Assembly: GCA_016930535.1 (NCBI GenBank)
Contig: JAFGGN010000085.1
Location: forward strand, 39,281 to 103,280
Reading direction: 5' to 3'
From: a bacterium
GTDB taxonomy: Bacteria; Zhuqueibacterota; QNDG01; JAFGCO01
DNA: 64,000 bases
Below the pieces are notes generated by a model. That model ran no database searches and was not told the DNA's origin. It was given only the letters and a program-made list of their open reading frames with translations. Every line of letters begins with the position of its first letter. Position 1 is the first letter of the stretch. The position numbers and the translations under genes were made by a program. Shown piece by piece: positions 20,489 to 62,508 of the stretch.

Positions 20489-23400
20489 TTATTTGATCAG
20501 CACCATTTTTCGTACAGCAGTTTTGTTCGCAGCCTTCAGCTGATAGACGTACACTCCGGTGGGTAATTTCATCCCCCGGTCATCCGTTGCGTCCCATTCG
20601 ACCGCATGTTTTCCGGCGTGACAGTCCTTTTCAACCATATACCGAACCCGCTGGCCAAGCGCATTATAAATTGAAATCCGGACATCCGATTTTTGGGGAA
20701 GGGTGAAATTGATCGTGGTAACCGGATTGAACGGATTGGGTGAATTGGGCAGCAATGCGAAATCAACGGGTTCCAGAGAAATGCCCTCCCTGTTTTTCTC
20801 CAGAAACTGTGCGGTACCCGCAATCATTTTAAAGGTTCTGCTCATATTGTCCGGATCGGAATTGAATCCATACAACCGGTCTTTCATCAGATCTACGGCC
20901 ACTTCGCTTTCAAAATCGATGAGATAGGCTTTCCAGTTCTCGGGCAGATCGGAAAGATGATTCCAAGTGATCTGATGCCTGGTCTGCGATTCGCCGCAGA
21001 GGACGGACAGTTTCCAAACCTGCCCATCCGTTTCGGTCGGACGAATATCCGCCGCATAGATGTTCGGTTTCTCCTCCCAGTCCGCATGTTCAAAAGTCAA
21101 CGATACGCCGTTCGCAAAGCCGCGCGGCGGCTCGGGTCTGTCATACAGATCAACCTGCATGGACGCGTGTTCGCGGACACCCGCATAATTGTACTTGTCA
21201 CAGCTGTAATCGTCCGATACAGAGATCTGCATGATCCATGACGTTTCTTCCAGATTATCAAGCAATCCCCTCCCGTTTCCGGCCGTTTTACTCAGAGACG
21301 CGTCTTCGGGATGGATGAAGAGATAACCCGGTTCAGGCGATGCATTGAAAAACCAGTAACCTTTCCAGGGCTCGAGATACGGAGTGTCCGGCCGGTAGCC
21401 GTCTTCCCCTTCCCAACCATAGGGCGGCGTGATCTGGGCCGATGAAAGGGAACAGTCCGACCATTTGATGGTGAAATTGTAGGGATTGCCCACCATATTC
21501 CAGCCGGGCTGCAGTTCCTTCTGAAAGCTGGTATCCGTGCTGACCGTATGACCGCCTCTTAAAGAGAACTGACGCTCGATATTGGAAACAAGCCAGTAGG
21601 CTCTCCCGGGAGGCATCGAGAAGGATCCCTTGTACAGATCCGAGAATTCAACATAGATGATGCCTTCGGGATCGTAATTGTACCAGACCTGACTGCGCGC
21701 CGGATCCCACCAGAACAGGCGCCACTGAAACGGATCGTAGTCTTTTATTGAAATCCCCGTGAAAACGGTATCCGCGCCGATATGATCGAGAAAAAACGGA
21801 ACCGAAAACATGGCGGCGAGCTGATACCTGCCCGTACTCATACGCTGGGGCGTGTAAACCAGCTGCGTTTGCATGGATTCAAACCTGATCGGTATCGATT
21901 TCGGTTTGTTGACGGGATCCATGACCGGATATGTAAACATGTGCTGTGTACTTGAAACCACTTCCACATAATACTCGACACCCCGCAAAGTGACCGCTTC
22001 TGACGGAATCACGGCACGGAATGTCTGGTCATTTTCCGGGAAGGCATTCGCGGTTTGATAGGAGATCCGGCCGCTCTGCCTGTAATACAATGTCATGCTT
22101 GAAGCATTGACAGCCACGGGTACGTTCAATGTGAGGGTGATCTGATCGCCCGCGTAAGGCGTGGCCGGCGTGAGTGCAGTCGGCCGTATACCGGCATCGA
22201 TGACCGGATTCATGCTCCAGATCTCTCTGTTGATCGTGGAGAAACGCAGTTCATCCAGATATCCCTGGAAATAACCGGCATATCCGCCGTTTTTACGCTC
22301 AGCCGCACCGAGAAGAAGCGGACGAACCAGGTCTGCAGTTTCAAGATCCGTATTCCATGTCTCCGACCATATTTCAGTGAAATCGACGAACATCCGCCCT
22401 GTTTTCAACTGATGGTCGTAAACAAAGGCGAGATGATGCCAGGCATTATCGTTGACCCTCGGCCCGACACCGTCGATTCCGTTCACAGTCACACGGCCGA
22501 AATTGTTGATGCCCACGATCAGGTCGCCCTGCATCAGGGAATCCTGAAATCCCTTGCCGATAAGGACCTGGGACACGGTGTCGGTCTTGAAATAGCATTC
22601 CAGTGTCAGGCTCTGGGTATGGAAATCGTTCTGCAGCAGCTCGTCGCCGGGAATCTCAACCCTGTCATTGTATCCGTCGAACCGGATGCAGGCATCGAAA
22701 AATCCTTCATCGTTCACGATCCGTGAACCGTTCCATAAGAATCCGTTCAGACGATTCCCTGAATTGTCAAAAATGGTATCCCCGTGCGATTCGTTGAAAT
22801 GATAGAGCATCACCGTGTATCCGTCCGCAGCATATTCGGCTGAACCCGGGCTCAGATAACCGGTTCCGGTCAGCGTGATCGCGGTCTGGGGTGAATTTTT
22901 GGCATTGCTTTGAATCGTGAGCGTTCTTGCATACGACGAAGTGGCCTGAACCGGTTTGAATGTCACGGGAAGAAATACGGATTGAAGCCGGTTCAATGAA
23001 AATGTCTGCATATTTTCAGGAATGCTGAAAATGGTATCCGCGCCGGATATTTCATGAATCGTCAGAGTCTGATCCCCGGGATTCGTGACAATCAGATTCA
23101 TTGTACGGGTAAATCCGAGCTTGACCTGATCGAACGGCAGCTGATACGCGGACAGGATAATCTGAGGAGGTATGACGTTCAGTTCCCAGGCTTTTCTGTC
23201 GATATTCGATATCCTGATCTCATCCATGAACCCGTAAAATACCCGGGACCCGCCGATATCGGAACCGTAGCGTACGGAGCCGCCTGCCAGGCTCAGTATA
23301 TCCCCGATGAAAGATACGCTGTCCTGAACCAGACCGTTTACCATCAGCCTTGCCCAGGATCCGTCAATGGACAGGGATACATGATACCATTGTTCGAGAT

Positions 23401-26400
23401 TGAAATCATCCGATTCGGGGCCGTGGAGCGTGAATCCCTGATTGAGCTGGTTCCATATGCGTGCCACAATTTCACTGTTTTCACCGCTTGTAAAGGCGAT
23501 TTCGAACTGTTTGGTGTTGTCCCCAAGCGCTCTCTGTACGATCAGGGCACCCGTGTTCGGAAGTGCGGACAACCGGAACCAGTTTTCAACCGTGAAATAG
23601 GCGCTCACCTTGCCCTCCAATGCCTCGGAAGGCAGTTCGAAATATCCGCCGTAAAACCGGAGCCCTCCCCCGAAACGGCCGGTATCTGAAATAGCAACCT
23701 GGTCGTGAAGGGTTCCGTGTTTGCCGTTTCCTGAAAAATCGCCTACCGTGACGCCGTCCACTCCGACTGAATCGAGATGAAACAGGGACAGGGTAAACGG
23801 ATCTGTTGGATAAGGTTCCTGCTCGATCGTGGGAATTCCGCTGCCGGACAGATTCACCTTGCGTTCCGGCCAGAAAGGATCGTTTGTGTAAAAAGTCAGT
23901 GCACCCGGATGCGATCCCAGCGTGAGTGCCTTGAATGTGATACGGATACGCCGGCTCTCCTCCTGAAGAAGATAGAACTGCTGTGTATCCGACTGGTAAT
24001 AGGCATCCAGATCAATGGCGATGCTGTCCACAAAAAGCGTATCCATGCCGAGCATGTTGTTCACCGAAAGTTCGAGTGTCCGGCTGGATCCCAGAAATAC
24101 ATCCCCGAAATTCAGCTGGGACGGGGACACGGATATTCTGGCCATATTGACATTGAATTCCCATGTATCGCGTCCCACACCGGATATGCGCACCTCGTCC
24201 ACGTTGCCTGAGAAGGCATTGGCCGAAAGCCAGTCCCCGCCGACAAGCATGGAAAGGGTGTCCAGGATGGTATGGCTCTGGTCGCTTGCCATGGTTCCGC
24301 CGAAGTACCGTGAATCGACGCTGTTGCCGTTGACATAAAGGTAAAGACTGTCCTCACGCTGTACAAGGGCCGTATGATACCACTGATTCAGCTGCACGGC
24401 CCCCAGTGCCGAACTGTTGACCTCGAACAGATCCTGTTCCGTATTGTACATCCTCCCGATAATCCGTCCGCCGTTATCGATGTACATGTCAAATTGATTG
24501 GCGGCCACGTTCCCCCGCCTGATGATCACGCTCTGCGTAATCGGATAGCGGTCGATCCTGAACCAGGTTTCCACGGTGAATCCGCCCCATACCGGACCGA
24601 ACCGGTCCTCCGAACCGGGTTTCACCAAAATCCGGTCCGCCGTATTTTTGAATTTGACGGAAAATCCTTCATCGAATTTCCGTATGGAGGCATCGTAGGT
24701 GGTGCTGCCCTTGAATGCGCCGTCCATTTCCTGACCGGAGCTGTCAGAAGCGACCAGGGGCGTATTGTCATCGAAGTGATACAGCCCCAGGGTAAACGGA
24801 TCCGCCTCATAACGCCCTGCCCGGAAATTGCTGACCGATCTCCCGCGTATGGGCACATTGTATGTGGGAAAAGTCGGATCTGAATTGACAATCACGAGGG
24901 ATTGACCATCTGCATGGTCATTTTCAGTATCAGGATGGTACGTCATCCAGATGATAGTGGATGATTGCGGCATGAGATTGATCGGAAGCGTGACCTCTTC
25001 GTCGATAAATTCGGACGGCGTATACAGATTGGCAATGGTGAGTATCTGGGAACCCCGGTTGTATATGGTCACCGGAACCCGCCTGGTCTGATCCATGAGC
25101 ACATAACCGAACTCGATGGGAGACGGCTGAATGGATATTCGTGCCCGGTTGACGTGAAACTCCCAGGACTGTCTTGCAATGGAAGAAATGTGAATCTCAT
25201 CGATCAGGCCGTTGAACGGTAAATAGCCCGTGGATGTGGCCCCGATGGCCATGGGTTCTGAGGTCTGAGGCCGCAAATCGTTCGACATGGCGGCCTTGGA
25301 GATGGGATCCCCGTTTAAGTAAAGGACCAGACTGTCCATATCCCATGTAAATGCTGCATGGTACCATTGATTCACATTGAAAATGCCGATGGAGCCGGAA
25401 TATATCGTATGCTGATTTCCGCCTGAATCCCAGACGCTGCCCATCAGGCCCTGACCTGTCTGATTGTCGAGTGCGAGTTCGACCTGCCGGGTCTCATTGT
25501 TGCCGCGCCGCATCAGAACGGCATATCCGGATGGGAGTTCCACGATATTGAACCACAATTCGACCGTGAAGGGTGTTTTCTCGAAATTCAGATGGCTGTG
25601 ATACGGAATCTGCAGGTAATCCGATTCCCCGTCGAGCCGGACGGCCTTATTGAAACCGGATTGTGAATTTTCCTGTGTCGGCTCCCCCTGGACAAAGGCA
25701 TCCTTCTCGAGAATCGAGGCGTCCTGAACGGACGATGCGATGGATTCATCATCCAGATGATACAAACCGATGGTGAATTCGTCACGGGTATAGGGACGCG
25801 TGGCCGGCAAAGACGTATTGAGCGTATCCACATAGGCCTGCAGCGTGAGCTCGATTACCGGCTCATCCGGATCATTTGAATAGATGCTTGCCACATCGAT
25901 CTGGGTCGATTTGCCCGCTGTTACAGGCGGAGAGAATGTCACTTCAACCTGCTGCATTTCTCCGGGCGCCACGGTAAACGAAACGTCATCGAAATGAAAC
26001 CAGGAGTTCAGCCACGTGATATTGTCAACCCGAAGCAGCGTGGTTCCCTCATTGATCACGTTCAGAATACGCGGCCGTGACTGGCCGGGAATGACCGGAC
26101 CGAATTGAAGCGGGCTTTCCGGGTAAATGGCGATATCCGGCTGGATAGAACTGCGGAAAAGATACACACCGTCACTGCCGTCGGCCATTGCGACCACACC
26201 GTTGCTGGCGGAAATATCGAGCGCGAGCGCCTCGCCGTTTGTGTTATAATATCCTGTCTCGGGAAACAGCCCGGGTGTTGAAAAATCAAATACACGCAGG
26301 CCCGATTCCGAATCGGTCAGGTAGATGGTTTTCTCGATGATCTGGATATCCGTAATATTTCCACCCGTAGTAACTCGCTGAACGCCGTTCGTCTGAAGGT

Positions 26401-28033
26401 TCCAGAGCAGGAATCCGTAGCGTCCGTTGGCCACGAACAGCGTGTCGCCTACTATGGCCATGCCGTATGCATCGATATCATTGGTCAGCGCATGTGTCTG
26501 AACCGGAAGCGCGGGAAGATCAATGATGTTGTATACAAAGACACTGCTGGAATCCACCAGAATGGCCCGATTGTCACTGACCAGAATTTTTTTGGATACG
26601 CCCGGCGTATTGATCTGCTGTTTTTTGAAAAATCCGCTGTAATCGAGCACGATGAAGCCGTCCGTACCGCAGGCCAGGAGCGCATAACTGCTGCCCTGCC
26701 TCTGATAAATATCCACATCGTAGCATGCATCCTCGATGTCCGAATACTGACCGATGTCGACCGGATTGGCGGGTGTGATCACATCGAGAACACGCAGACC
26801 CGCCGTGCCGTCTGCCAGGAATGCATATCCCTGCCTGACGGTCACGCCGCGAACCTCGCCCTGCGTATTAAATGAACTGTATACGGGAAGATGGTCCTTG
26901 TCCGACTGACTGTAGCTCAGACTGATAATTTTCAAACCTGCCCGGCCGTCAGCCACATAAAGCATGTTGTTGTCAATAAACGCATCATAGGCGTAATCCG
27001 ACGGGCTGATCGTTTCAGTGACGGAGGATTGCTGTCCTTCTTTGACATCCACCAGCAACAATCCGTTGGGCCCGTCGCAGACGAGGGCCGTCGAATCGTC
27101 CTTTATCCAAACACGGTTCGTATATCCTTCCGTATTCAATGCAGGAAAAATCTGCGACCCGGGAGCTGCGGGATTCGAAATGTCGATCGGACCCACAAGG
27201 CCTTCCTCGCCGCATGCAATAAAAAGCCGGTTGCCGCGATAACGCATATCGACCACATCCAGAGGAAGACTGTCCGTCCAGGATCCCAGCTCAACGAGAT
27301 TTTCAGGATCGGAATAATCGACTGTGCGCAGACCTCCGTATCCCGCGGCCACATAGGCCACAGTTCCGCTGATGATGACGTTTTTGGCCTGCGGATCCGA
27401 TATGGGAAATCCCTGAAATGCCGGCGCAAAACCGAGAGAATCATGCACCACGGGCGTGTCTTTTTTCTTCGTATTGACGGAAAACAAACCGGATTCATGA
27501 ACCGCAAGCAGTGCGAGTGAATCGTTCACGACCCACACGTCCATGGCGGGATTGGAAGTGAGATAATATCCCTCTATTTTCGGCTGATAATAATTATGAA
27601 CACCGTAAATCAGCAGACCGCTGGTTCCGGCTGCGACATAGACGTACTTGTTGAAAAATCCGACACCCGTTGCATCTCCCTGAATCGGCACCGTTGAAAT
27701 AATCTCGAGTGTATTTTCGGCCGTGTTCAATTCAACCAGAATCAGTCCATGATGACCGCATACGGCGTAAATCATGTTCAGGGTCGATTCCACCCATATA
27801 TCCTTGATCGCGCCCGGAAGCAGAATTTCGAGATAGGGATCCAGGGAGCCTGACGCATTGGTCGTATAAACCTGAAGATAGGCACCGTTGCCGATAAATG
27901 TATAGTCGCCGCGCTGAAATACCGCTTCACAGCGTCCTTCGGCCCACTGGGCACTGCGTTCCACATTGAACTGCTGTGCCATTGATCCGAAACTGATGGT
28001 CAGCAAAAGCAGGGTAACGGTTTTTCTTAACAT
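20489..28033 (-). CDS. giant secreted protein A (2514 aa): N-terminal LVIVD-repeat beta-propeller, about 4 alternating choice-of-anchor-D Ig-like and LamG/concanavalin-A-like modules, C-terminal T9SS sorting domain
   Basis: It has a signal peptide. LVIVD-type repeats include YVADGRAGLKIISL, FLADGTAGLRVLDVITPANPV and IYLTDSESGLRVFDFSTPG. Choice-of-anchor-D-like segments include FGPVIPGQSRPRILNVINEGTTLL. LamG_3-like modules include FTLGLYHFDD...WYH...LYVNG and YTVMLYHFNESHGDTIFDNSGN. The C-terminus PNSPNPFNPVTTINFTLPQ...GVYVYQLKA is a Por_Secre_tail-type sorting domain. An RBS GAGGAG precedes the start. Confidence 0.8.
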   Translation of the reverse strand: MLRKTVTLLLLTISFGSMAQQFNVERSAQWAEGRCEAVFQRGDYTFIGNGAYLQVYTTNASGSLDPYLEILLPGAIKDIWVESTLNMIYAVCGHHGLILVELNTAENTLEIISTVPIQGDATGVGFFNKYVYVAAGTSGLLIYGVHNYYQPKIEGYYLTSNPAMDVWVVNDSLALLAVHESGLFSVNTKKKDTPVVHDSLGFAPAFQGFPISDPQAKNVIISGTVAYVAAGYGGLRTVDYSDPENLVELGSWTDSLPLDVVDMRYRGNRLFIACGEEGLVGPIDISNPAAPGSQIFPALNTEGYTNRVWIKDDSTALVCDGPNGLLLVDVKEGQQSSVTETISPSDYAYDAFIDNNMLYVADGRAGLKIISLSYSQSDKDHLPVYSSFNTQGEVRGVTVRQGYAFLADGTAGLRVLDVITPANPVDIGQYSDIEDACYDVDIYQRQGSSYALLACGTDGFIVLDYSGFFKKQQINTPGVSKKILVSDNRAILVDSSSVFVYNIIDLPALPVQTHALTNDIDAYGMAIVGDTLFVANGRYGFLLWNLQTNGVQRVTTGGNITDIQIIEKTIYLTDSESGLRVFDFSTPGLFPETGYYNTNGEALALDISASNGVVAMADGSDGVYLFRSSIQPDIAIYPESPLQFGPVIPGQSRPRILNVINEGTTLLRVDNITWLNSWFHFDDVSFTVAPGEMQQVEVTFSPPVTAGKSTQIDVASIYSNDPDEPVIELTLQAYVDTLNTSLPATRPYTRDEFTIGLYHLDDESIASSVQDASILEKDAFVQGEPTQENSQSGFNKAVRLDGESDYLQIPYHSHLNFEKTPFTVELWFNIVELPSGYAVLMRRGNNETRQVELALDNQTGQGLMGSVWDSGGNQHTIYSGSIGIFNVNQWYHAAFTWDMDSLVLYLNGDPISKAAMSNDLRPQTSEPMAIGATSTGYLPFNGLIDEIHISSIARQSWEFHVNRARISIQPSPIEFGYVLMDQTRRVPVTIYNRGSQILTIANLYTPSEFIDEEVTLPINLMPQSSTIIWMTYHPDTENDHADGQSLVIVNSDPTFPTYNVPIRGRSVSNFRAGRYEADPFTLGLYHFDDNTPLVASDSSGQEMDGAFKGSTTYDASIRKFDEGFSVKFKNTADRILVKPGSEDRFGPVWGGFTVETWFRIDRYPITQSVIIRRGNVAANQFDMYIDNGGRIIGRMYNTEQDLFEVNSSALGAVQLNQWYHTALVQREDSLYLYVNGNSVDSRYFGGTMASDQSHTILDTLSMLVGGDWLSANAFSGNVDEVRISGVGRDTWEFNVNMARISVSPSQLNFGDVFLGSSRTLELSVNNMLGMDTLFVDSIAIDLDAYYQSDTQQFYLLQEESRRIRITFKALTLGSHPGALTFYTNDPFWPERKVNLSGSGIPTIEQEPYPTDPFTLSLFHLDSVGVDGVTVGDFSGNGKHGTLHDQVAISDTGRFGGGLRFYGGYFELPSEALEGKVSAYFTVENWFRLSALPNTGALIVQRALGDNTKQFEIAFTSGENSEIVARIWNQLNQGFTLHGPESDDFNLEQWYHVSLSIDGSWARLMVNGLVQDSVSFIGDILSLAGGSVRYGSDIGGSRVFYGFMDEIRISNIDRKAWELNVIPPQIILSAYQLPFDQVKLGFTRTMNLIVTNPGDQTLTIHEISGADTIFSIPENMQTFSLNRLQSVFLPVTFKPVQATSSYARTLTIQSNAKNSPQTAITLTGTGYLSPGSAEYAADGYTVMLYHFNESHGDTIFDNSGNRLNGFLWNGSRIVNDEGFFDACIRFDGYNDRVEIPGDELLQNDFHTQSLTLECYFKTDTVSQVLIGKGFQDSLMQGDLIVGINNFGRVTVNGIDGVGPRVNDNAWHHLAFVYDHQLKTGRMFVDFTEIWSETWNTDLETADLVRPLLLGAAERKNGGYAGYFQGYLDELRFSTINREIWSMNPVIDAGIRPTALTPATPYAGDQITLTLNVPVAVNASSMTLYYRQSGRISYQTANAFPENDQTFRAVIPSEAVTLRGVEYYVEVVSSTQHMFTYPVMDPVNKPKSIPIRFESMQTQLVYTPQRMSTGRYQLAAMFSVPFFLDHIGADTVFTGISIKDYDPFQWRLFWWDPARSQVWYNYDPEGIIYVEFSDLYKGSFSMPPGRAYWLVSNIERQFSLRGGHTVSTDTSFQKELQPGWNMVGNPYNFTIKWSDCSLSSAQITPPYGWEGEDGYRPDTPYLEPWKGYWFFNASPEPGYLFIHPEDASLSKTAGNGRGLLDNLEETSWIMQISVSDDYSCDKYNYAGVREHASMQVDLYDRPEPPRGFANGVSLTFEHADWEEKPNIYAADIRPTETDGQVWKLSVLCGESQTRHQITWNHLSDLPENWKAYLIDFESEVAVDLMKDRLYGFNSDPDNMSRTFKMIAGTAQFLEKNREGISLEPVDFALLPNSPNPFNPVTTINFTLPQKSDVRISIYNALGQRVRYMVEKDCHAGKHAVEWDATDDRGMKLPTGVYVYQLKAANKTAVRKMVLIK

Positions 28034-28071
28034 GTGTAAGATTCTCCTCTTGATCCGACAGTCGTCATCAT

Positions 28072-29445
28072 TTATCGCTGCGGAGGTCTTGGAGGTTCAG
28101 AAAGCTGAAACGGCAGCACAGGAGCCGGAGAAATACTGGCCTCGACAAAAGGCTCACGGGAATTGTTGCCCGGAAGGATCAGGGCATTATGCTGCAATCC
28201 CATCCACTGCAGCCGGTTGTATGAACTGACGATATCCGGCGGCGGTGAAAACACGAGTCGCGCGCGTCCGCGTGCGGACGTTTCGACGAGATGCCGGACT
28301 TCATACGTCACACGCATCTGATTGTAATTCTGTGTCACTTCCCAAATTTTCGGATTCAGCATATAATCCTGGGCATTGATAAAAGAACCGTCGTATCTCA
28401 GCGCATTGTGAAAATGATTCTGGGCGATCGAGAAATTACCCTGATCGAGCGCATCAAGACCGCGGCAGTAGCTGATAAACGCCAGCATATTTTCCGTGGG
28501 AATTTCGAGCAGCTGATCACGCTGTCTGTCGTTCATAAAAATATCGAAGAAATCCGAAATCCGCATGGCCAGTTCTTTTTCAATTTTAAAAAAGCGGGCC
28601 AGATTGCCGTCGAAATTCATGCTCAGGGCTGTGGCATTCGTTTCAGCGGTAATGATTTCCGAATCCAGCGTCATCTTCAGATCATCCGTAATCAGGTACG
28701 ATCCGTTGATCAGATACCTGGCACCCAGAATACGCGCCACGCGCTGCTGAACACCCGGTTCGCGCATGCTGACCGGATTCAGTCCCAGCTCGGACATCAG
28801 ACGGTTCAGCTTGACACGGTCGATGACCACCAGATTCGGTATAGTGGAAAGGTCCTGGGCGATGATTTCAGCAAGACCTTTCTGCAGGGGATCCCATTCG
28901 ACATTGTCGCTCAGGTTGAGAAAATAGGTCACCACCACGCTGTTTTCCGGAAATTCCTCGAAACGGCGGATATCCTCTTCCTGAATGGCCTTGTTCAGTT
29001 CACGTCCGATTTTCTGCTGCGAGACCCAGTTGAGACGGCCGAACATGAAATAGCGGTAGGGATCGTCATCGGGCAGCACTTTGTAACGCCTGTAAACGGA
29101 CAGGGCCTCGTTTTCCTGATCAAGCGCCTCCCGGGACATCCCGAGAAAAAACAGAGCCTTGCCATGAGCCGGATCCTTTTCCAATACTTTTTCAAATATT
29201 TTGGCCGCGGCCGAGTAGCTCTGCTTGTGCCAGTAGGCCACACCGATTCCTGTCATCGCTTCCTTATCGTAAAGAATGAAGCGCTTCCCGTCACGGATGC
29301 GCGGCCTCAGCATCATCAGATAATTCCGGATGGCCTTGTCATAATCCTTACGATCAAGCTCTTCTTCCGCAGCATGATATTTTGAAGTTGCGCACCCGCT
29401 GAAGAACACAGCGAATATCAAAACTGCAGCAAGTTTCCATTTCAT
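28072..29445 (-). CDS. lipoprotein with N-terminal TPR region, central CsgG/LpoB/FlgO-like alpha/beta domain and Pro-rich C-terminal tail, paralog A
   Basis: The lipobox is FFSGC. It is paralogous to 37015..38442 (KDYDKAIRNYLMML vs NDYERAMQAYIRSL; DGKRFILYDKEAMTGIGVA vs DGKRYIRYQPVAMTRIGIS; LPDDDP vs LPADDP). The central segment VVVTYFLNLSDN...LAEIIAQDLS is weaker than in the paralog. The tail is SEPPRPPQR. Confidence 0.55.
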   Translation of the reverse strand: MKWKLAAVLIFAVFFSGCATSKYHAAEEELDRKDYDKAIRNYLMMLRPRIRDGKRFILYDKEAMTGIGVAYWHKQSYSAAAKIFEKVLEKDPAHGKALFFLGMSREALDQENEALSVYRRYKVLPDDDPYRYFMFGRLNWVSQQKIGRELNKAIQEEDIRRFEEFPENSVVVTYFLNLSDNVEWDPLQKGLAEIIAQDLSTIPNLVVIDRVKLNRLMSELGLNPVSMREPGVQQRVARILGARYLINGSYLITDDLKMTLDSEIITAETNATALSMNFDGNLARFFKIEKELAMRISDFFDIFMNDRQRDQLLEIPTENMLAFISYCRGLDALDQGNFSIAQNHFHNALRYDGSFINAQDYMLNPKIWEVTQNYNQMRVTYEVRHLVETSARGRARLVFSPPPDIVSSYNRLQWMGLQHNALILPGNNSREPFVEASISPAPVLPFQLSEPPRPPQR

Positions 29446-29461
29446 GAAACAACCCCAATGG

Positions 29462-30577
29462 TTATATGGTGATCTTCAGACTTGCGAGAATATCGAACCC
29501 GCTGATATCGATATCCACGACCGATTCGATGGTACCGGTCAGATACTTGAGCTGAATCCGGGAAAGCACCGTCGGGGACAATTTGTGCTGAATTCCCAGG
29601 CCCGCACCATATACGGACGCTTTGCCGAATCCGTCTTCGTTTTCGCTGTAAAAACGGCCGTCCCATAAGAGTGACAATCCGCCTTCCGGCCATTGCGTGA
29701 ATTCCCAGAGTCCGTCCGTTTCGATCTGATCCCCGATGGTCTTTTTGGATATTTTTTCCGAATCGTCCTGGGCATTTCCAGGCAGATACAGATCGTTTTT
29801 CCCTCTCTGCCTGTACCGCAATGAGGCGTACAGAAAACCGGGATTCAATCGATACGCCAGTGTGGATGATATCAGGATCTTGTCGCCGGCCTCGAGCATT
29901 TTTTCATCATTATACAGATCTTCGGTATACATGGTGTACACGAGATCCAGGCTCCATTTTCCCTTATCCTGAACGGGCATGCTCACACCGCCGACAATGT
30001 TGATTTCATCTCCGGGATCATATTCCGAATCCAGTCCGGACCATAACGAATAGGGCTGCTTCAGTATATAATTGGCTCCCAGTCCGAGCACGGTGCCTCC
30101 CTGCATCGGGAATGTCATGCCGGCGCCGACTTTGGCCGACAATCCCTGACCGTAATTGGGAAGCCGGAAACGCAGAATATTTTCACTCAGCTGCCTCGTG
30201 ATCATATATTCCGCGGCCGTCAGTTCCGTTTTTCCGGTGGGAGCGCCCACACCCATATTGATCATCCAGCGTTCATCGGCCGAGACATACGTCACACGCA
30301 GCCAGGTGTCCGAAAGACCGCTGACACTGCTGTCGCCCCAGGAAGCCGTGGCCGGTGTATTGGTCGCTGTCAGAAACCAGTTTGCATTGACAGGATAGAA
30401 GCAGAGCAAGGGAGCGGCTGTCTGGTTCAGGGACGTATCCTGGTCCTCGGCTGTCCATTGCTGGTAGGATACACCGAGATTGACATATCCGCTGCCCTTG
30501 GAGGGCTGCATGTATTCCTGAGCGAAAGCAGAGCCCGCAACCGTGGAAAGCACGATATAAAGAATCCATTTTTTCAT
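29462..30577 (-). CDS. outer-membrane beta-barrel protein, paralog B (partner of giant protein B)
   Basis: The signal peptide is MKKWILYIVLSTVAGSAFAQE. It is homologous to 19232..20452 (NYGQG, DPGDE, YRQRGKN, DGRFYSENEDG, KYLTG). There is a 26-nt gap after giant gene B and a 16-nt gap before lipoprotein A. Confidence 0.6.
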   Translation of the reverse strand: MKKWILYIVLSTVAGSAFAQEYMQPSKGSGYVNLGVSYQQWTAEDQDTSLNQTAAPLLCFYPVNANWFLTATNTPATASWGDSSVSGLSDTWLRVTYVSADERWMINMGVGAPTGKTELTAAEYMITRQLSENILRFRLPNYGQGLSAKVGAGMTFPMQGGTVLGLGANYILKQPYSLWSGLDSEYDPGDEINIVGGVSMPVQDKGKWSLDLVYTMYTEDLYNDEKMLEAGDKILISSTLAYRLNPGFLYASLRYRQRGKNDLYLPGNAQDDSEKISKKTIGDQIETDGLWEFTQWPEGGLSLLWDGRFYSENEDGFGKASVYGAGLGIQHKLSPTVLSRIQLKYLTGTIESVVDIDISGFDILASLKITI

Positions 30578-30603
30578 ATTTTATCCTTCTTCCTGAATCC
30601 GGA

Positions 30604-33600
30604 TTATCTGACGAGCATCATTTTTCGTATGGCCACCCTGCCCGGGAACTCGAGTTTGTAAAAATAAATACCGGAAGACAGGGCCGTCCCGCGGTTCGAG
30701 AGGCCGGACCATCTGATTTCATACTCACCGGACTGCTGTTCCTGATTGATCAGGACGTTCACGCATTCACCCCGCATATTGTACACGCTCAGCTTGACAT
30801 GACCCGTACGGGGCAGCGAGTATTTAATCATTGTTACCGGATTGAATGGATTCGGATAATTCTGATACAGATGGAATTCGCGTGGTGCAACCGCATTCTC
30901 CAGCTGCTTCTGAACGAATTCCGGCGGACCGGCAATGCATTTCAGGAAACGGACATTGGGAACCTCATCCGGGGTTACCATGGCATAATCGTCCATGTCC
31001 GTGACATCGAGGGCAATGCCTTCCCGTTCGTCGACCAGCATGATCTTCCAGGATTCAGGCAGCGTCTGAACCATCTGCCAGGTCAGTTTGATCAGCTTCT
31101 TATTCAGAGAAGATTCCACGGCGATATCCCAGACAAAGCCCTCTTCCTGCGGCGAGCGGATGTCCGCCGCGTAGGTCCCGGGATGTCCGGCCCAGTCTGA
31201 ATGATCGAAGAACACGGAAATATACTCACCGATGGGCGGCGGCTCGACACGGTCCCTCAGATCCCATTCGGCTCTTGCATCCTGCCGTACACCGATATAA
31301 TTGTCGAGATCCTCCGCCGATTCGGCCCGTGCAGACAATTTCCATATCCAGTCGGATTCTGCCAGCGATTCCAGCACGCCTCCGCGTGTGGCCGCACCTT
31401 TTGCGAGCGCTGCGGATTCACGCGGCGGGACAATCAAATCGTTATAGGTTCTCCCGGCATTGTATATCCAGTAGCCGCCCCACGGATCGAGCGTGGGCCA
31501 GTCAAGCCGGTATCCCATGCCGTTATAGTAGTACAGCGTTTCCAATGAATCTGAAGTCAGGGCGCAGTCGTTCCAGTGCACCGTGAACGGGAAAGGCGAA
31601 CCGATCATGCTCCACTGCGGCCTGAGTGAAAAGCGGTAGGGACCGTTTGTGGAAACCGAAGCGCCTGCATTCACGTCCCACAGTTTCCGTGCCGCCGAAA
31701 TGACCCAGAATGCGCGTCCCTGATCGAATGCAAACACGAGGCTGTCCGCATAGGACAGGCTGTCGTCCATTTCCCAGTATGACGTATCCTTCCAGGTCAG
31801 GCAGCGCCATTCATAGGGATCCCAGACATTGTTGAATTCATCCAGCAGCACGGTTCCCGCATTGGCATCGTCCAGATCGGCCGGAACCGAAACCATGACA
31901 TACTTCTTTTTCAGGAACATGGCCGAGGTATCCGCAGTCAGTGAATTGAAACGCACACGCGCGGCCATCGGCCGGTTGATCGGATCGTACAGGGGATGCG
32001 TCGATGTGCGGCCGGATGTGACCATTTCCACATAAAATTCGAGACCCCGTTCCGTCATCTGGTCTGCGGGAACGATCGCCTGATACAGGGTCGGAACAAG
32101 CTGATCAGGCGTCGCTGTTAGTGTCTGATATCCTCTCTGTCCCCCCTGCCTGTAATGGAGATACACTTCTTTATCCGTCGTTGTGACTGGAACCGTGATC
32201 TGAACCGCCTGCTGCACGCCCTTCTGCGGCACGGTTGTATAGGATGCGGAAATACCGGTTCCCTTGAAGATCAGGTCCCAGGGCTGACGGGCGATGCTTG
32301 AAATTCTGATTTCATCCATGGTCCCGTCAAAAAAACCGGTGAGCTGGCCTGTTGCGGTTTCACGGGCCGCAAATACAAGCCTTCCCGGAGAGACGATGTC
32401 CGTATCCCCCGCATGCCACAAGCCCTGCAGTTCCACATTGCCGTCCAGATACAGGGTGGCCTGCTGGACCGTTCCGTCATACACGAATGCCGCGTGATGC
32501 CATACCCCGTCCGCCACGCAGGTGTTCCCCTTGCCGAATCCGTGCAGGGTCAGGAGCCCGTCCGTATCGATGATCAGGCCGTAATTGCTGCGGTTTTCCG
32601 AGCCGGATATATGGGGATCCTTGTGGAACAGCACCTGGTTGAGCGTGTCGGTTTTAAAGAAGCATTCGACCGTGAAACTTTCGGTGGACAAATCGAACTG
32701 AAGACCCGCATCATCCGCCACCCACATGTACTCGTCCACGCCGTTGAAGGACAAACCGCCGGAGAAATAAGCGGGATTTACGCGCGATCCCGTGCCGGCC
32801 ATGGTCCCGTTATGATTTCCGGTCGCATCCGCGACACTCAATCCGGTTTCATCGCAATGCCAGAGCGCCACCGTATACTGATCGAGCCCGTAGGGCACTT
32901 TGGGCCGGTAATCGATTCCCACGGCCAGTATCGGAACGCTGAGCATCGGCGTGTCCGGATCGTTGCTGAAAATCCTCAATGTATCCGTCACGGTTCTGAT
33001 TGTGTCCGGAACGAACTGGACGAACAGGTTGGTCGTTTCTCCTGCGGTCAGCGTGATTTTTGCCGGTGCCATCAGGAAAACGGACTGATTCGTGCGGATC
33101 GTATCGATCACGAGAGGAACGCCGCCTATATTCGACACTTCGATAATGCGGTTCGCGGAACTGCCGACCATGACGGTACCGAATTCGAGACGCTGTGCGG
33201 CCGTATAAATATTGGGAATGCCGACATTGAACTCCTCGGGCTGACGGTCGATATTCGAAAAACGGATTTCATCCAGATACCCGTTGAACCCGTGACCGGT
33301 ACCGTAATCACCGCCCAGAGCCAGATCCGCAACCGAACTGCGCAGCGTTCCGTTAAAAGCAACGGAATCCACGGCCACGCCGTTGACGTACAGCCTGAAT
33401 TTGTTCAGATCCCATGTGAGTGCCATCTGATACCAGGAATCGATGTTCATTTCAGTATCCGGAGGTCCGTACAATGTGTAGATCTGCCCGCCCGAACTGT
33501 ACAGGCGGATCACGAGGCCCTTGCCCGCGGTCAGCGTATCGCCGTACATGACTTCGTACTGCAGACTGGTGCCGCTGCCGCGCCGGAATAATGTGTAGAA

Positions 33601-36600
33601 ATTTTTGCCGGAGGGTTTGGCAGAAAGGCTGAACCAGGTTTCGAGGCTGAACGGAGACGATGCATAATTGAAAACCGGATTGTACGGAACCCGTACCCAG
33701 CCGGAACTGCCGAGAAACCTGAGCGATGACAATCCGAACTTTTTATAAATGTCGGACCAGGACAGGCCGCCGCCTTCAAAATATCCGACAAGGCCTTTGC
33801 CCGAAGCGTCGGGTATCGAATCCATTTCCACGGTTCCGTCCAGATGCCAGAGACCGGATGTATATGTGTCCGTCACGTAGGCGCCCAGATTGATGGTCTC
33901 GAATCCGTTCCCCGAAAGCGGCACGCGGATCAGGGACTGAAACTGATCCTGTGAACGGATAAACAGCGTATCCGTGTATGCCTGGGCATTCGTGGGCCTG
34001 AATCCGACCCAGATCAGTCGCTGGCCGGAGGAATTGATGCTGAATTCGGGTTCCGACACGGTGAAATGCGGATTCTTCGTGTACAGGCTGTCCACATAAA
34101 GGACGCCCGATCCCACATTGCGCACATACATATAGATATACTTTGAACGGTTGACATAGACATTGCCGAATGCGAGGGACCCGTAAGGTACCTGGATGCG
34201 TCCCGTATTGATGTTGAATTCCCACGGCTGACGCGCGATGCCCGAAAGCCGCATTTCGTCGAGTGTTCCGTGAAACGGCTTTGTCAGACCCGGATCGTTC
34301 CCAACCGTCGCTGTCAGCAGGCCAGTGGGCTCCGGCACGTCCGTCTCTTTCTCATCCGCCAAAAAGCCGTTCAGATAGAGCTTCAGATCCTCACCGTACG
34401 TCAGCGCACCGTGGTACCATTGCCCCGTTGTCAACGGGAATTCGGCATCCGACAGCAGGGTGTCGATCGTGACCGCATTTTCGGAGGACAGGCCCATCAG
34501 CCGGTTGTTACGCACGCTGAGCTCGAACACGATCCTGTCTCCTTCAGACAGCCGGAACAGCACGCCGGTGCCTTCCGGAATCTGATCGAGTTTGAACCAG
34601 GTCTCGATACTGAATCCGGGCCACTCTTCCACAGGCAGAAGATCCATGTTGTTCAGCTGCACGTTCACGATATCGTTTTCATTGAATACCAGTCCCTGCC
34701 CGAACCGTCCCATGCCTGTTCCTGAAACAGCCGCTCCGGTGACGGTGCCGTCCATATAACCATACAGGGATTCATCGGGAAGCGTTTCACCTTCGAGGGC
34801 ATTCATATGATACAGCATGAATGTGTAGTAATCAGGCTGGTATGCCGCCACATCGATGGTGTTCACACCCGTGCCGATCACTTTCAGCAGATGCGGACTG
34901 TTCGTCGCATCCGAATAGAATCTCAGTGTGTCCCTCACGGTTCCGGTTGTGGACGGTGCAAAACGAACCTCCATCCAATCCTCGCCCGGACTGATCCACC
35001 TCGGCAGGTTCGCTCCGTAGAACCGTCCCGATGTGGAGGTGGATTCGTTGACATAAACCGATGCAGTGCCCGCATTTACCACGCGTACCCACAGGGATCT
35101 CGACTGCCCGAGCACGACACTGCCGAAATGGACAGAATCCGCATCAATCACCAGCTGGCCCGTAAAATCACCGGAGAAATAATAAACGCCCCCGATGCCG
35201 TCGGCCAGTGCCAGGGTGTCCCCCATCACCTTGATGCCGTAACTCGACCCCGCCGTATGATAGTAACCGACTTCAGAGAATTCCTCCTCGTTGGATGTAT
35301 CGATCAGGCGCATGGTCCCCTGTCCGTCCGCAACAACGGCCACATTGTCATGAAAACTGACGTCATAGGCATACCCATCCGTATTGTACTGTCCTGCCGG
35401 AACGATATTTTCCAGATTTGAGACATTCAATCCGACCAGGCCATTCGGTCCGTCCGCCAGATAGATCCTCTCCGATCCCTCGCCCTGCAGTCCCACGGCC
35501 ATGGTATGACTGCTGCTCTTGTAGGATCCGACAATGGTCTGTGTCGGAATATTCACGACTTTCACGCCATTGGTATCGGCCGATACGTAGAGCCGGTTCG
35601 AACGGGCATCGGCTTCCACACCCACGGCCCGTATGCCGGTGACACCTTCGAGCATGCCCTGATTCAGGGGTTCGAAGGGATTGGTCACATCGATTTTTCG
35701 TACACCGGCGGTTCCCTCTGCCGCATAGGCATAGTCCCCGGCGACCGTGACATCCAAAAATTCACTTGCAGTTTGAAAATGCGTGATATAGGCCGGCTGC
35801 AGAGGATTGCTGACATTATAGAAAAGCAGGCCTCCTGGACCGTCCGCGATGATCAGCACGCTGCCGGCAAGGGCAAGCCCCTGGGCATTCTCCGTGTCCC
35901 AATGGGACCGGAGCGTCACCTGACTATCGTGCAGCTGCGAATTGTCCAGAATCCAGACACCGCTCTGTCCTCCTGCCACATACGTCGTATTGGCGGTCAG
36001 GACCAGGTCCATGGCACTCCCGCCGGTCATAATCTGCTCGTTCTCCTGCGGAGGAGCCACGGCCACGTCGATTTCCCTCAGTCCGTCGTTTCCGTCCGCC
36101 AGATAGGCATAGTCCGGTCCCAGGTAGACGGCGAGCGCTTCTCCGCCTGTATTGAGGGACGTGGCCTGATTCATCGTGGTCAGATCGATGACGCGAAGGC
36201 CGTAACCTTCATCGGATACGTAGGCTTTCTCGGCTCCGACATCCACAGCAATATCGCTCAGCAACGCATTGTCGCCGGCTTCCCACTGATCCGCAATCGC
36301 CATGTTCGACGGATTGGTCACATTGACGGCAAGAACACCGTGTGTTCTGTCCGCGACAAAAGCCTGCGTTCCCCGTACGGACACGCCAAAGGCCTTGTCA
36401 GGGGTTTTGACCGTATCCAGTCTGACAGGAGCCGCCGGATTGGTGATGTTCACGGAAACCAGACCGACTGCATCCACGGCCAGATAAGCTGTATTTCCGC
36501 TGACATAAACATCCTGGACCGGCGACGTGAACTGAAGGACGGCGACCTGGTCAAAATCGGATGTCCGGATCACGGAGAATCCCCAGCTGCCGTTGGCCAC

Positions 36601-36981
36601 GTAGATATAACCGTCCTGATAGGCCAGCCTGCGGACATCTCCGCCCGATGCCCATGTGCCTGCGAGCGTCGGATTGGTGATCAAGCTTCTGTCCAGCACA
36701 TAAACACCGGAATTCTGAACAGCTACGTAAACCTTGAATGACTGATAATAAATATCCTGGATCAGACCCGGAAACGTATACCTGGCGAAACGGTTGTCAT
36801 AATTTTCCGCATCCAGAATATCCAGATAGCTTCCGTTTCCCATGTGAAGCGCGTCGGCCGTGGTGAATATGGCCCGGCAGGGTCCGCTGGCCCAACGCGC
36901 CTGAAGCGACAGATTGTCGCTGTGCTGTGCAGAAACAGCGACGGTCACGGTCATCCATACGGTAAGAATAAGCCTTTTCAT
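30604..36981 (-). CDS. giant secreted protein B (2125 aa): LVIVD-repeat beta-propeller, about 3 choice-of-anchor-D/LamG modules, C-terminal T9SS sorting domain; paralog of giant A
   Basis: It has a signal peptide. LVIVD repeats include YAYLADGNDGLREIDV, LIIADGPGGLLFYNVSNPLQP and YAYAAEGTAGVRKIDVTNPFEP. A choice-of-anchor-D-like segment is VHFGSVVLGQSRSLWVRVVNAGTASV. LamG modules include YTFMLYHMN...WYHGALTY...LYLNG and YTVALWHCDETG...WHHAAFVYDG. The C-terminus QNYPNPFNPVTMIKYSLP...GIYFYKL is a T9SS sorting domain. The N-terminal 100 aa and the C-terminal 500 aa align with giant A. Confidence 0.8.
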   Translation of the reverse strand: MKRLILTVWMTVTVAVSAQHSDNLSLQARWASGPCRAIFTTADALHMGNGSYLDILDAENYDNRFARYTFPGLIQDIYYQSFKVYVAVQNSGVYVLDRSLITNPTLAGTWASGGDVRRLAYQDGYIYVANGSWGFSVIRTSDFDQVAVLQFTSPVQDVYVSGNTAYLAVDAVGLVSVNITNPAAPVRLDTVKTPDKAFGVSVRGTQAFVADRTHGVLAVNVTNPSNMAIADQWEAGDNALLSDIAVDVGAEKAYVSDEGYGLRVIDLTTMNQATSLNTGGEALAVYLGPDYAYLADGNDGLREIDVAVAPPQENEQIMTGGSAMDLVLTANTTYVAGGQSGVWILDNSQLHDSQVTLRSHWDTENAQGLALAGSVLIIADGPGGLLFYNVSNPLQPAYITHFQTASEFLDVTVAGDYAYAAEGTAGVRKIDVTNPFEPLNQGMLEGVTGIRAVGVEADARSNRLYVSADTNGVKVVNIPTQTIVGSYKSSSHTMAVGLQGEGSERIYLADGPNGLVGLNVSNLENIVPAGQYNTDGYAYDVSFHDNVAVVADGQGTMRLIDTSNEEEFSEVGYYHTAGSSYGIKVMGDTLALADGIGGVYYFSGDFTGQLVIDADSVHFGSVVLGQSRSLWVRVVNAGTASVYVNESTSTSGRFYGANLPRWISPGEDWMEVRFAPSTTGTVRDTLRFYSDATNSPHLLKVIGTGVNTIDVAAYQPDYYTFMLYHMNALEGETLPDESLYGYMDGTVTGAAVSGTGMGRFGQGLVFNENDIVNVQLNNMDLLPVEEWPGFSIETWFKLDQIPEGTGVLFRLSEGDRIVFELSVRNNRLMGLSSENAVTIDTLLSDAEFPLTTGQWYHGALTYGEDLKLYLNGFLADEKETDVPEPTGLLTATVGNDPGLTKPFHGTLDEMRLSGIARQPWEFNINTGRIQVPYGSLAFGNVYVNRSKYIYMYVRNVGSGVLYVDSLYTKNPHFTVSEPEFSINSSGQRLIWVGFRPTNAQAYTDTLFIRSQDQFQSLIRVPLSGNGFETINLGAYVTDTYTSGLWHLDGTVEMDSIPDASGKGLVGYFEGGGLSWSDIYKKFGLSSLRFLGSSGWVRVPYNPVFNYASSPFSLETWFSLSAKPSGKNFYTLFRRGSGTSLQYEVMYGDTLTAGKGLVIRLYSSGGQIYTLYGPPDTEMNIDSWYQMALTWDLNKFRLYVNGVAVDSVAFNGTLRSSVADLALGGDYGTGHGFNGYLDEIRFSNIDRQPEEFNVGIPNIYTAAQRLEFGTVMVGSSANRIIEVSNIGGVPLVIDTIRTNQSVFLMAPAKITLTAGETTNLFVQFVPDTIRTVTDTLRIFSNDPDTPMLSVPILAVGIDYRPKVPYGLDQYTVALWHCDETGLSVADATGNHNGTMAGTGSRVNPAYFSGGLSFNGVDEYMWVADDAGLQFDLSTESFTVECFFKTDTLNQVLFHKDPHISGSENRSNYGLIIDTDGLLTLHGFGKGNTCVADGVWHHAAFVYDGTVQQATLYLDGNVELQGLWHAGDTDIVSPGRLVFAARETATGQLTGFFDGTMDEIRISSIARQPWDLIFKGTGISASYTTVPQKGVQQAVQITVPVTTTDKEVYLHYRQGGQRGYQTLTATPDQLVPTLYQAIVPADQMTERGLEFYVEMVTSGRTSTHPLYDPINRPMAARVRFNSLTADTSAMFLKKKYVMVSVPADLDDANAGTVLLDEFNNVWDPYEWRCLTWKDTSYWEMDDSLSYADSLVFAFDQGRAFWVISAARKLWDVNAGASVSTNGPYRFSLRPQWSMIGSPFPFTVHWNDCALTSDSLETLYYYNGMGYRLDWPTLDPWGGYWIYNAGRTYNDLIVPPRESAALAKGAATRGGVLESLAESDWIWKLSARAESAEDLDNYIGVRQDARAEWDLRDRVEPPPIGEYISVFFDHSDWAGHPGTYAADIRSPQEEGFVWDIAVESSLNKKLIKLTWQMVQTLPESWKIMLVDEREGIALDVTDMDDYAMVTPDEVPNVRFLKCIAGPPEFVQKQLENAVAPREFHLYQNYPNPFNPVTMIKYSLPRTGHVKLSVYNMRGECVNVLINQEQQSGEYEIRWSGLSNRGTALSSGIYFYKLEFPGRVAIRKMMLVR

Positions 36982-39272: not shown

Positions 39273-39540
39273 CAGCACACCTTCAACAGGTTTCAAAGCC
39301 ATGTATCCATTTAGCTTAGATTAATATACAATAATAAAAATTCATCTCATTGTCAAGATATAATTTTGTTCATTATTTTTTTTAACGTGCAACTACCATG
39401 CCCGAATATTTGTTACAAAAAAGAAATATTTTAATTGATTGTTATTTATAGGTTTGATTTTTATGAGTTTTAACCGGTCGCCTGCATTGCACCGTGGCCA
39501 TGGAGGAATTCAATACAGCCATGTGTCCGGATTCGAAAGC

Positions 39541-39556: not shown

Positions 39557-39655
39557 TAACCCGTTTTACGAAAAACACATTGATAATAACGGGAGATTAT
39601 AGTATTTTAATCATATATGAGGGACAGGACCAAGGACGATCTGGGAAATATTCAC

Positions 39656-47634: not shown

Positions 47635-47648
47635 TGAACTCAGGGACT

Positions 47649-50858: not shown

Positions 50859-50910
50859 GACATTTCCTGCAGCTTATTTTCCCTGTTGGTCGACATGCAT
50901 GCACTCAACT

Positions 50911-62476: not shown

Positions 62477-62508
62477 GAAGGGCTCCTTAATCATGTACAA
62501 ATCAAACG

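Follow-up and report, generated by a model that had tools for sequence, protein, structure and literature searches.

To our knowledge, the retention of type IX secretion system (T9SS) cargo at the cell surface is understood only in model species of the Bacteroidota. The core T9SS machinery comprises SprA/Sov, PorV, PorU and GldKLMN; in the models for these species, type A cargo undergoes CTD cleavage and attachment to A-LPS, and type B cargo is anchored by PorP/SprF. Type A cargo of the Bacteroidota uses PorV, PorU and A-LPS, and we know of no type A cargo that requires a dedicated neighbouring barrel or lipoprotein. The phyla of the FCB group are mostly uncultured, and annotation lists the very large CTD proteins they encode as hypothetical.

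The PorE-PorP-PG1035 and SprF-SprB complexes (PMC9143113) are the precedent for the arrangement considered here, and the genes for type B cargo are adjoined by cognate shuttle genes (PMC12618676). PelBC combines one 16-strand barrel with TPR and 12 lipoproteins arranged in a ring (PMC12141448). The original description of LVIVD repeats came from cell-surface proteins (PMC2447325).

Two tandem cassettes encoding giant paralogues

The window, i.e. the whole 64-kb stretch of DNA from an uncultured bacterium that was analysed, contained two tandem three-gene cassettes, each encoding a TPR lipoprotein, a giant protein and a predicted outer-membrane β-barrel protein. All of these genes lay on the minus strand. 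The locus began with a gene (38577..39302) for a 241-aa CsgG-N/LpoB-like protein, followed by cassette B with a 475-aa TPR lipoprotein (37015..38442), giant B (30604..36981, 2125 aa) and, 26 nt downstream of the latter, a 371-aa barrel (29462..30577). Cassette A comprised a 457-aa TPR lipoprotein (28072..29445), giant A (20489..28033, 2514 aa) and a 406-aa barrel (19232..20452), 36 nt downstream of the giant. The interval 20489–36981 thus also includes one lipoprotein and one barrel (28072..29445 and 29462..30577) that were absent from the preliminary description, in which the duplicated cassette had likewise gone unremarked. Both giant ORFs were found with the limits given there, and the proposal that they are paralogues with the same layout was upheld, their products being 31 % identical across ~1575 aa.

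Giants A and B shared a layout of signal peptide, ~14 LVIVD blades, Ig+LamG_3 modules, a region of ~460 aa and a sorting domain. The LVIVD family (PF08309) was matched with E=7.6e-18 in A and 1.6e-24 in B, and an iterated repeat HMM detected 12 blades in A (residues 73–639, 26117..27817) and 13 in B (residues 70–602, 35176..36774) with a period of 40–45 aa; judging by the blade count, these probably form two seven-bladed propellers. Matches to choice-of-anchor D Ig (NF012200; 102 bits in A and 96 bits in B, cutoff 45) and to LamG_3 (Laminin_G_3, PF13385; E=1e-69 in A and 1.8e-48 in B) alternated along both proteins, with four stretches of each in A (residues 633–1950, 22184..26137, period ~330 aa) and three in B (residues 607–1572, 32266..35163). 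The domain assignments of the preliminary description (LVIVD, choice-of-anchor-D Ig, LamG_3 and T9SS sorting domain) were all borne out by matches far above chance, and its module counts of four and three agreed with both profiles. Binding of a ligand or carbohydrate by the non-catalytic propeller and LamG array would be a reasonable reading of this architecture.

Sec signal peptides could be read from the translations of A (MLRKTVTLLLLTISFGSMA followed by QQ) and B (MKRLILTVWMTVTVAVSA followed by QH). The type-A-like sorting domains (20492..20740 in A; 30607..30858 in B, FlgD_ig-like) matched TIGR04183, which represents the T9SS type A sorting domain, with 36.0 bits in A and 35.4 bits in B (cutoff 23), PF18962 with 29–31 bits (cutoff 27), and PF13860. 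The Pfam family CHU_C, which is related to the type B domain, was borderline (25.5–28.5 bits in A and 18–20 bits in B, cutoff 27), and no type B NCBIfam model was among the matches listed at E≤0.1 for either protein. A second CTD protein was encoded within the window at 42237..45242, indicating that the sorting signal is used more than once. No T9SS core gene was found in the 64-kb window.

The four modules of A against the three of B had suggested recombination-driven size variation. This was contradicted at both the nucleotide and the protein level. At 75 % identity, nucleotide repeats within or between genes A and B did not exceed ~55 nt, and a period of ~984–999 nt in gene A was visible only as short, weak motif matches. 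The seven Ig+LamG modules of the two proteins were just 25–34 % identical in pairwise comparisons. At least 14 separate clusters of distant orthologues (50 % identity, 2485–2543 aa) were colinear with the A-type architecture over its full length, the B type was also conserved (P0011, 2160 aa, 39 % identical), and the whole two-cassette locus was found again in other metagenomes. A and B are therefore ancient duplicates with fixed module numbers, and it is extremely improbable that module number changes by recombination between repeats to give size or phase variants. Stable, specialised binding proteins are indicated instead of rapid size variation.

A conserved module before the sorting domain

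The region preceding the sorting domain (residues 1951–2430 of A, 20744..22183; residues 1577–2041 of B, 30859..32253), here called the stalk, was 35 % identical between A and B, so that the conserved C-terminal region of unassigned function noted previously is real. It had no match in Pfam even at E≤10 and none in NCBIfam, and the best match by sequence in the PDB had E=0.23; the stalk of B was recovered by the profile search with 694 bits (P0007). Structure prediction gave a confident AF2 model for the stalk of A (pLDDT 88.8, pTM 0.84), which was all-β and consisted of three β-sandwich domains (D1, D2 and D3). No global match to this model was found among PDB structures, the matches being limited to non-catalytic sandwich domains. 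The top Foldseek match was the archaeal S-layer protein 7ptp (E=1.8e-6), whose query-normalised TM-score of 0.14 points to generic similarity among β-sandwich chains only. The conserved residues of the stalk were mostly Trp, Pro, Gly and Tyr, a pattern typical of structural cores. No known enzymatic domain was found, and the model and the conserved residues both indicate that the stalk is not an enzyme; that the C-terminal 460–480 aa form a catalytic domain accounting for the function of the giants is hardly credible.

The profile search placed the stalk in 10287 50 %-identity clusters at E≤1e-3 and in 2614 at E≤1e-30, a breadth that had not been recognized in the preliminary description. Among the 150 best hits, full matches ended ~84 aa before the C-terminus of proteins of 427–4022 aa. 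The stalk was always located directly before the sorting domain, and the passenger domains ahead of it were highly diverse; the family extended over phyla of the FCB group, with several copies per genome. In a sample of 28 proteins the passengers included ASH/choice-of-anchor-D Ig (17/28), Sortilin/BNR (6/28) and LamG_3 (5/28), with fn3, PKD and β-helix domains also represented. The family is defined by the stalk and not by the head and, as far as profile searches can tell, the stalk is an undescribed, unannotated and widespread module family.

Barrel and lipoprotein genes linked to the stalk

The barrels of cassettes A and B were 29 % identical (E=5e-55), that of cassette A ending in KYEF. 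Neither matched any Pfam or NCBIfam family at E≤10, PorP/SprF included; some of their homologues did contain PF13557 or PF13505, which are families of outer-membrane barrels. The cassette barrel was modelled with 16 strands, resembling CdiB and PelB; the POTRA domains that precede the barrel in TpsB/Omp85 proteins such as CdiB and FhaC were not found in the cassette barrels.

The two TPR lipoproteins, 27 % identical to each other, were both ordered TPR, CsgG-N-like domain (TolB_N-like in B), TPR. Their lipoboxes were FSGC in cassette A and, in the alignment, MLGC in cassette B, and TPR families were matched in the cassette B protein with E down to 7.6e-12. A single PorE match to the lipoproteins (17 bits) fell in the TPR part. 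The CsgG family (PF03783) scored 18.5 bits in cassette A and 11.5 bits in the other lipoprotein, below the cutoff of 20.8; the matches of the cassette B protein to CsgG and TolB_N were both weak. The 241-aa protein, in which TPR follows an α/β domain at the C-terminus, was homologous to the middle of both lipoproteins (phmmer E ~1e-15 to 1e-19) and matched Pfam CsgG (E=2.4e-14, profile positions 8–97 of 210 only) and LpoB (E=2e-4). It was a conserved neighbour at other loci, where its counterparts were ~350 aa long with an additional N-terminal TPR. As the profile match was limited to positions 8–98, the channel-forming part of CsgG is absent. Identity with the CsgG curli secretion channel was rejected on this basis, together with the sub-cutoff scores of the lipoproteins and the lack of curli genes among the window ORFs scanned.

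Genes encoding the stalk module typically had a barrel gene next downstream and one or two genes for CsgG-N/LpoB-like TPR lipoproteins upstream. The barrel gene usually abutted the module gene, in many cases with only a few nucleotides between them (median distance ~48 nt, 41–42 loci). Both a TPR lipoprotein and a barrel were present at 23 of the 41 well-flanked genome loci, a barrel alone at one and a TPR lipoprotein alone at none. With a barrel HMM, a barrel was found at 24/41. One cultured carrier of such a locus is Roseithermus sacchariphilus. The remaining 17 of the 41 module genes had neither a barrel nor a TPR gene at a distance of up to 10 kb, which suggests that the partners are shared in trans or not obligatory. 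In the reverse direction, the barrel profile retrieved 42 metagenome loci, of which 29 held a module ORF, in almost all cases directly upstream of the barrel; of the eight loci flanked by 3 kb or more on either side, seven held one. Each paralogous giant retained its own barrel and TPR lipoprotein, and the full order of a GWxTD gene, a CsgG-like gene and two successive cassettes of lipoprotein, giant and barrel recurred at four other loci (identity ≤56 %).

Candidate surface attachment and its relation to known systems

The linkage suggests, with about even chances, that A and B are non-catalytic surface binding proteins exported by the T9SS and held by a cognate complex of barrel and lipoproteins. 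They would pass through Sec and then the T9SS to be displayed on the cell surface, with the LVIVD blades and three to four Ig+LamG lectin-like modules as a distal ligand-binding head, and the three conserved β-sandwich domains as a proximal stalk followed by the type-A-like sorting domain. The barrel and lipoproteins would together make up a cognate docking or shuttle complex in the outer membrane, which takes up the stalk and sorting domain once they have been translocated and retains the protein at the surface. In this role the barrel would act like PorP/SprF and the lipoprotein like PorE, which serve type B cargo, although the families are unrelated. Three observations weigh against docking: by its score the sorting domain is of type A, whose Bacteroidota cargo needs no dedicated barrel; 17 of the 41 module genes stand apart from barrel and TPR genes; and the window lacks T9SS core genes.

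Gene linkage by itself cannot tell docking from another shared function. The barrel and the TPR/CsgG-N-like lipoproteins might instead be a separate exporter of a polymer, either exopolysaccharide or amyloid (cf. PelBC and curli CsgG), with the giants as matrix proteins, secreted by the T9SS, for binding or organising it and the linkage reflecting a common matrix function. In favour of this reading are the composition of PelBC, with its 16-strand barrel, TPR and lipoproteins, and the place of the LamG_3 modules in the ConA-like lectin superfamily. We consider this reading unlikely, since no glycosyltransferase, polymerase or amyloid-subunit gene occurred among the window ORFs scanned, the CsgG match lacks the channel-forming part, the barrel gene abuts the module gene, and the linkage follows the stalk whatever the passenger, LamG being present in so few of the sampled members. 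The likeness to 7ptp, the size of the family and its several copies per genome could also be taken to mean that the giants form an S-layer-like coat or are released in soluble form, with the C-terminal module as a self-assembly unit and not a docking unit. This is improbable, as the likeness to 7ptp is that of β-sandwiches in general and self-assembly would leave the tight reciprocal linkage to barrel and lipoproteins unexplained.

A broader and more tentative proposal is that the stalk, the 16-strand barrel and the TPR/CsgG-N-like lipoproteins constitute a previously unrecognised route of T9SS surface attachment. It would be used across phyla of the FCB group, among them Ignavibacteria, Calditrichia, KSB1, Rhodothermales, Balneolaceae, Marinimicrobia and Gemmatimonadota, would be distinct from both PorU/A-LPS attachment (type A) and PorP/SprF anchoring (type B), and would employ the stalk as a generic adaptor mounting diverse passengers on one outer-membrane dock. 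A conserved, unnamed adaptor found in thousands of clusters together with barrel and lipoprotein genes would provide a handle for annotating many giant surface proteins. Such an adaptor would give a testable model of surface display outside the Bacteroidota, and would be a candidate scaffold on which foreign passengers could be displayed.

Compared with PelBC, the TPR of the cassettes is fused to the lipoprotein and not to the barrel, genes for pel-type biosynthesis are absent from the vicinity, and the linked gene encodes a protein cargo bearing a T9SS sorting domain. Classical type A cargo such as gingipains and PPAD shares with A and B the Sec signal peptide and a TIGR04183-scoring sorting domain, whereas the conserved three-domain module and linked accessory genes distinguish A and B. 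Giant cell-surface proteins of the LVIVD-repeat and LamG type are known from archaea and bacteria, and LamG_3 and choice-of-anchor-D Ig domains are common in large secreted proteins; A and B differ from these in that they have a fixed order of propeller, three to four Ig+LamG modules, stalk and sorting domain, and belong to a conserved gene cassette. The cassettes also resemble SprB-SprF and PG1035-PorP-PorE, in which a very large CTD surface protein is likewise encoded beside its own outer-membrane barrel, a TPR-containing lipoprotein is a partner, and each copy of a duplicated cargo gene retains a barrel of its own. The differences from these type B systems lie in the type A score of the sorting domain, the conserved 460-aa stalk before it, a barrel unrelated by profile to PorP/SprF and modelled like CdiB and PelB, lipoproteins with a CsgG-N/LpoB-like core and an architecture other than that of PorE, and an occurrence mainly in non-Bacteroidia lineages of the FCB group.

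Two tandem cassettes and their giant proteins

The giant paralogous proteins A (20489..28033, minus strand, 2514 aa) and B (30604..36981, minus strand, 2125 aa) shared 31 % identity across approximately 1575 aa. Profile searches upheld all of the domains named in the preliminary description, namely LVIVD repeats (A, E=7.6e-18; B, E=1.6e-24), Laminin_G_3 (A, E=1e-69, four stretches; B, E=1.8e-48, three stretches), HYDIN/ASH-type Ig domains (NCBIfam choice-of-anchor D; A, 102 bits, four copies; B, 96 bits, three copies; cutoff 45) and a T9SS type A sorting domain (TIGR04183; A, 36 bits; B, 35 bits; cutoff 23). The copy numbers of Laminin_G_3 and choice-of-anchor D also matched the four (A) and three (B) Ig+LamG modules counted from the sequence. 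Both proteins had a plausible N-terminal Sec signal peptide, as judged by eye. An iterated repeat HMM detected 12 LVIVD blades in A (residues 73-639) and 13 in B (residues 70-602) with a period of 40-45 aa, suggesting a total of about 14 per protein; going by blade count alone, these would probably form two seven-bladed propellers. The kinds of domain present suggest that the propeller and LamG head may bind a ligand. A and B thereby extend domain classes that are already known.

The number of Ig+LamG modules is old and fixed. The difference between A and B had been attributed to recombination-driven size variation, and this idea was rejected because no nucleotide repeats longer than approximately 55 nt at 75 % identity were found within or between the two genes, the seven modules had diverged to a mutual identity of 25–34 % with only weak positional correspondence (A3-B2, 34 %), and length was kept in distant relatives. 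At least 14 separate 50 %-identity clusters (2485–2543 aa) aligned to A from the first to the last residue with 32–38 % identity, and a 2160-aa protein aligned end to end with B (39 % identity).

The preliminary description delimited the giants correctly, but made no mention of their gene context. The locus, which lies entirely on the minus strand, begins with a gene for a 241-aa CsgG-N/LpoB-like protein (38577..39302), followed after 134 nt by genes for a 475-aa TPR lipoprotein (37015..38442), giant B, a 371-aa barrel protein (29462..30577), a 457-aa TPR lipoprotein (28072..29445), giant A and a 406-aa barrel protein (19232..20452), with gaps of 16–38 nt between the cassette genes. As the two TPR proteins (27 % identity, E=1e-43) and the two barrel proteins (29 % identity, E=5e-55) are also paralogues, the locus is the product of an ancient duplication, in tandem, of a cassette of three genes. 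The sole candidate in a sigma-70 scan was a weak promoter-like site (39356-39328), and a terminator scan detected no terminator downstream of the last cassette gene; the operon limits are putative. The nearest relatives were Zodletone MAGs (e.g. locus L005); the 371-aa barrel protein was identical to the NCBI hypothetical protein JW948_13410 and was also present in run SRR13394437.

Both TPR proteins possess a lipobox, and their central domain shares homology with the 241-aa protein, in which a canonical lipobox is lacking. The match of this CsgG-N-like domain to the CsgG profile was confined to the N-terminal half (positions 8-98 of 210), and a CsgG channel was rejected for all three proteins. 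Weak matches to LpoB, TolB_N, FlgT_M and FlgO were also obtained, and comparison of the 241-aa and TPR proteins with PDB sequences gave generic TPR matches only. The first gene encodes 234–260 aa in the closest relatives (loci L002 and L004) and approximately 340–375 aa in loci from Ignavibacteria and Rhodothermales, where the protein has an additional TPR at its N-terminus. Structure prediction showed a barrel fold for the barrel proteins. Within this family (alignment A5) conservation peaked not in the strands but in a segment between two of them, with the consensus GVGAPTGKT.L...EF.LSQ.LSEN.FRFRLPVYGQGL, which was modelled as a short helix and a stretch without regular secondary structure.

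The conserved C-terminal module

The preliminary description had left the conserved region preceding the sorting domain (A residues 1951-2430, B residues 1577-2041) without a function, and this is borne out by database searches: no Pfam or NCBIfam match was found, even at E≤10, and among PDB sequences the strongest match to the module profile, part of a fucosidase, reached only E=0.23. Word-indexed homologue searches recovered only two to five relatives, and the family became visible only when 1.84 billion cluster representatives were scanned exhaustively with the profile, of which 10287 matched at E≤1e-3 and 2614 of these also at E≤1e-30. Among the best 150 matches, protein length ranged from 427 to 4022 aa, and whole-module matches ended approximately 84 residues from the C-terminus, where the sorting domain follows directly. 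Many members of approximately 600 aa consist of a signal peptide, the module and a sorting domain, and nothing else. In a Pfam scan of 28 members the passengers were ASH/choice-of-anchor-D Ig (17/28), Sortilin/BNR (6/28) and LamG_3 (5/28) domains and, more rarely, fn3, PKD, beta-helix and LTD domains.

An AlphaFold2 model of the A module with its sorting domain, built from 44 sequences, was of high confidence (pLDDT 88.8, pTM 0.84) and all-beta, with predicted domains D1 (approximately residues 1-106 of the model), D2 (121-296) and D3 (316-458) followed by the sorting domain (489-565). The module is thus a non-enzymatic stalk; an enzymatic reading was rejected on the all-beta model and the lack of Pfam, NCBIfam and PDB sequence matches. 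The first 100 or so residues, a single sandwich, occur as 16–20 tandem copies with the motif YYR..G...Y....IPA..V..RG.EYY in a few proteins of 3000–4000 aa (P0009, P0015 and P0118). In P0009 these copies accompany beta-helix and PKD domains, and its repeat region gave only weak Pfam matches, to GlgE_dom_N_S and Big_7.

Linkage of module, barrel and lipoprotein genes

A forward scan with the module profile against one genome per species gave 151 confirmed matches, from which 79 loci were kept. Carriers included Ignavibacteria, Calditrichia, KSB1, Rhodothermales, Balneolaceae, Marinimicrobia, Gemmatimonadota, Zixibacteria, Latescibacteria and others, with one cultured representative, Roseithermus sacchariphilus. 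In the 41 loci with enough flanking sequence, 23 had both a TPR lipoprotein and a barrel, one had a barrel alone, none had a TPR protein alone and 17 had neither; by the barrel HMM a barrel was present in 24/41, at a median distance of approximately 48 nt from the module gene. No accessory genes were found around the short family member P0002 (locus L001). The linkage is reciprocal: of 42 metagenome loci retrieved with the barrel profile, 29 contained a module ORF, in almost every case directly upstream, and this rose to seven of eight where at least 3 kb was available on both sides; the loci lacking a module ORF were mostly contigs ending close to the barrel gene. The two-cassette duplication is ancient and stable. 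It was repeated in L005 and L090 and, in its complete form with the divergent GWxTD gene, in L082 and L083, in each case with identity of at most 56 %.

This GWxTD-domain gene (39617..40915, plus strand; TIGR04514, E=1.6e-29), divergent from the cassette locus, also neighbours the cassette in L004, L082 and L083 and may for this reason belong to the system. An S46 family dipeptidyl-peptidase gene (DPP7/DPP11-like; 16967..19039, minus strand; E=4.8e-190) follows the last cassette gene after 192 nt and in the same orientation, and its linkage to the cassette was not found in other loci. A second T9SS cargo protein of 1001 aa (42237..45242, plus strand), with Flg_new_2 (InlB B-repeat-like), Big_9 and cadherin-like domains, has a FlgD_ig/Por_Secre_tail sorting domain and no stalk module. 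Elsewhere in the window, signalling genes at 45829..53133 (minus strand) encode, by rising coordinate, a hybrid histidine kinase with a receiver domain, a PAS-rich histidine kinase, an HD_5 protein and a 740-aa HEAT-repeat protein. At 59171..63960 (minus strand), a protein of 1109 aa contains PD40 (WD40-like) repeats and matches Peptidase_MA_2 weakly; it is adjoined by an ORF with a GH94 (cellobiose/chitobiose phosphorylase-like) catalytic domain near the window end. On the downstream side of the window, two DUF4097 ‘toastrack’ proteins (7801..8634 and 14907..15830, minus strand), an LPG_synthase_TM protein (13826..14785) and an SLT transglycosylase (12840..13604) were also identified.

A putative outer-membrane dock for T9SS cargo

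The observations of the preliminary description stood, and its interpretation stood in part. From the gene linkage we infer that the barrel and lipoproteins would form a cognate outer-membrane dock or shuttle, at which T9SS cargo bearing the stalk would be received. A less probable alternative is that they would constitute a PelBC-like exporter of some polymer (cf. PMC12141448). Biosynthesis genes are, however, absent nearby, and such an exporter leaves unexplained why the linkage tracks the stalk module and not the lectin-like passengers. Searches of the literature on the CsgG/TPR/T9SS combination and on choice-of-anchor/LVIVD did not turn up any account of the cassette or the module. On comparative genomics and structure prediction, the adaptor module with its accessory cassette so far appears to represent a new form of T9SS cargo handling.

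The closest precedents for a dock or shuttle of this kind are the complex of PorE (a TPR lipoprotein), PorP (a barrel) and PG1035, and the SprF-SprB pair (PMC9143113); genes for type B cargo are likewise adjoined by those of their cognate shuttles (PMC12618676). In contrast to that type B system, the sorting domains of A and B are type A by score and the cassette barrel is not a PorP/SprF protein, and the relation to PorE-PorP/SprF-SprB is therefore one of functional analogy, not homology.
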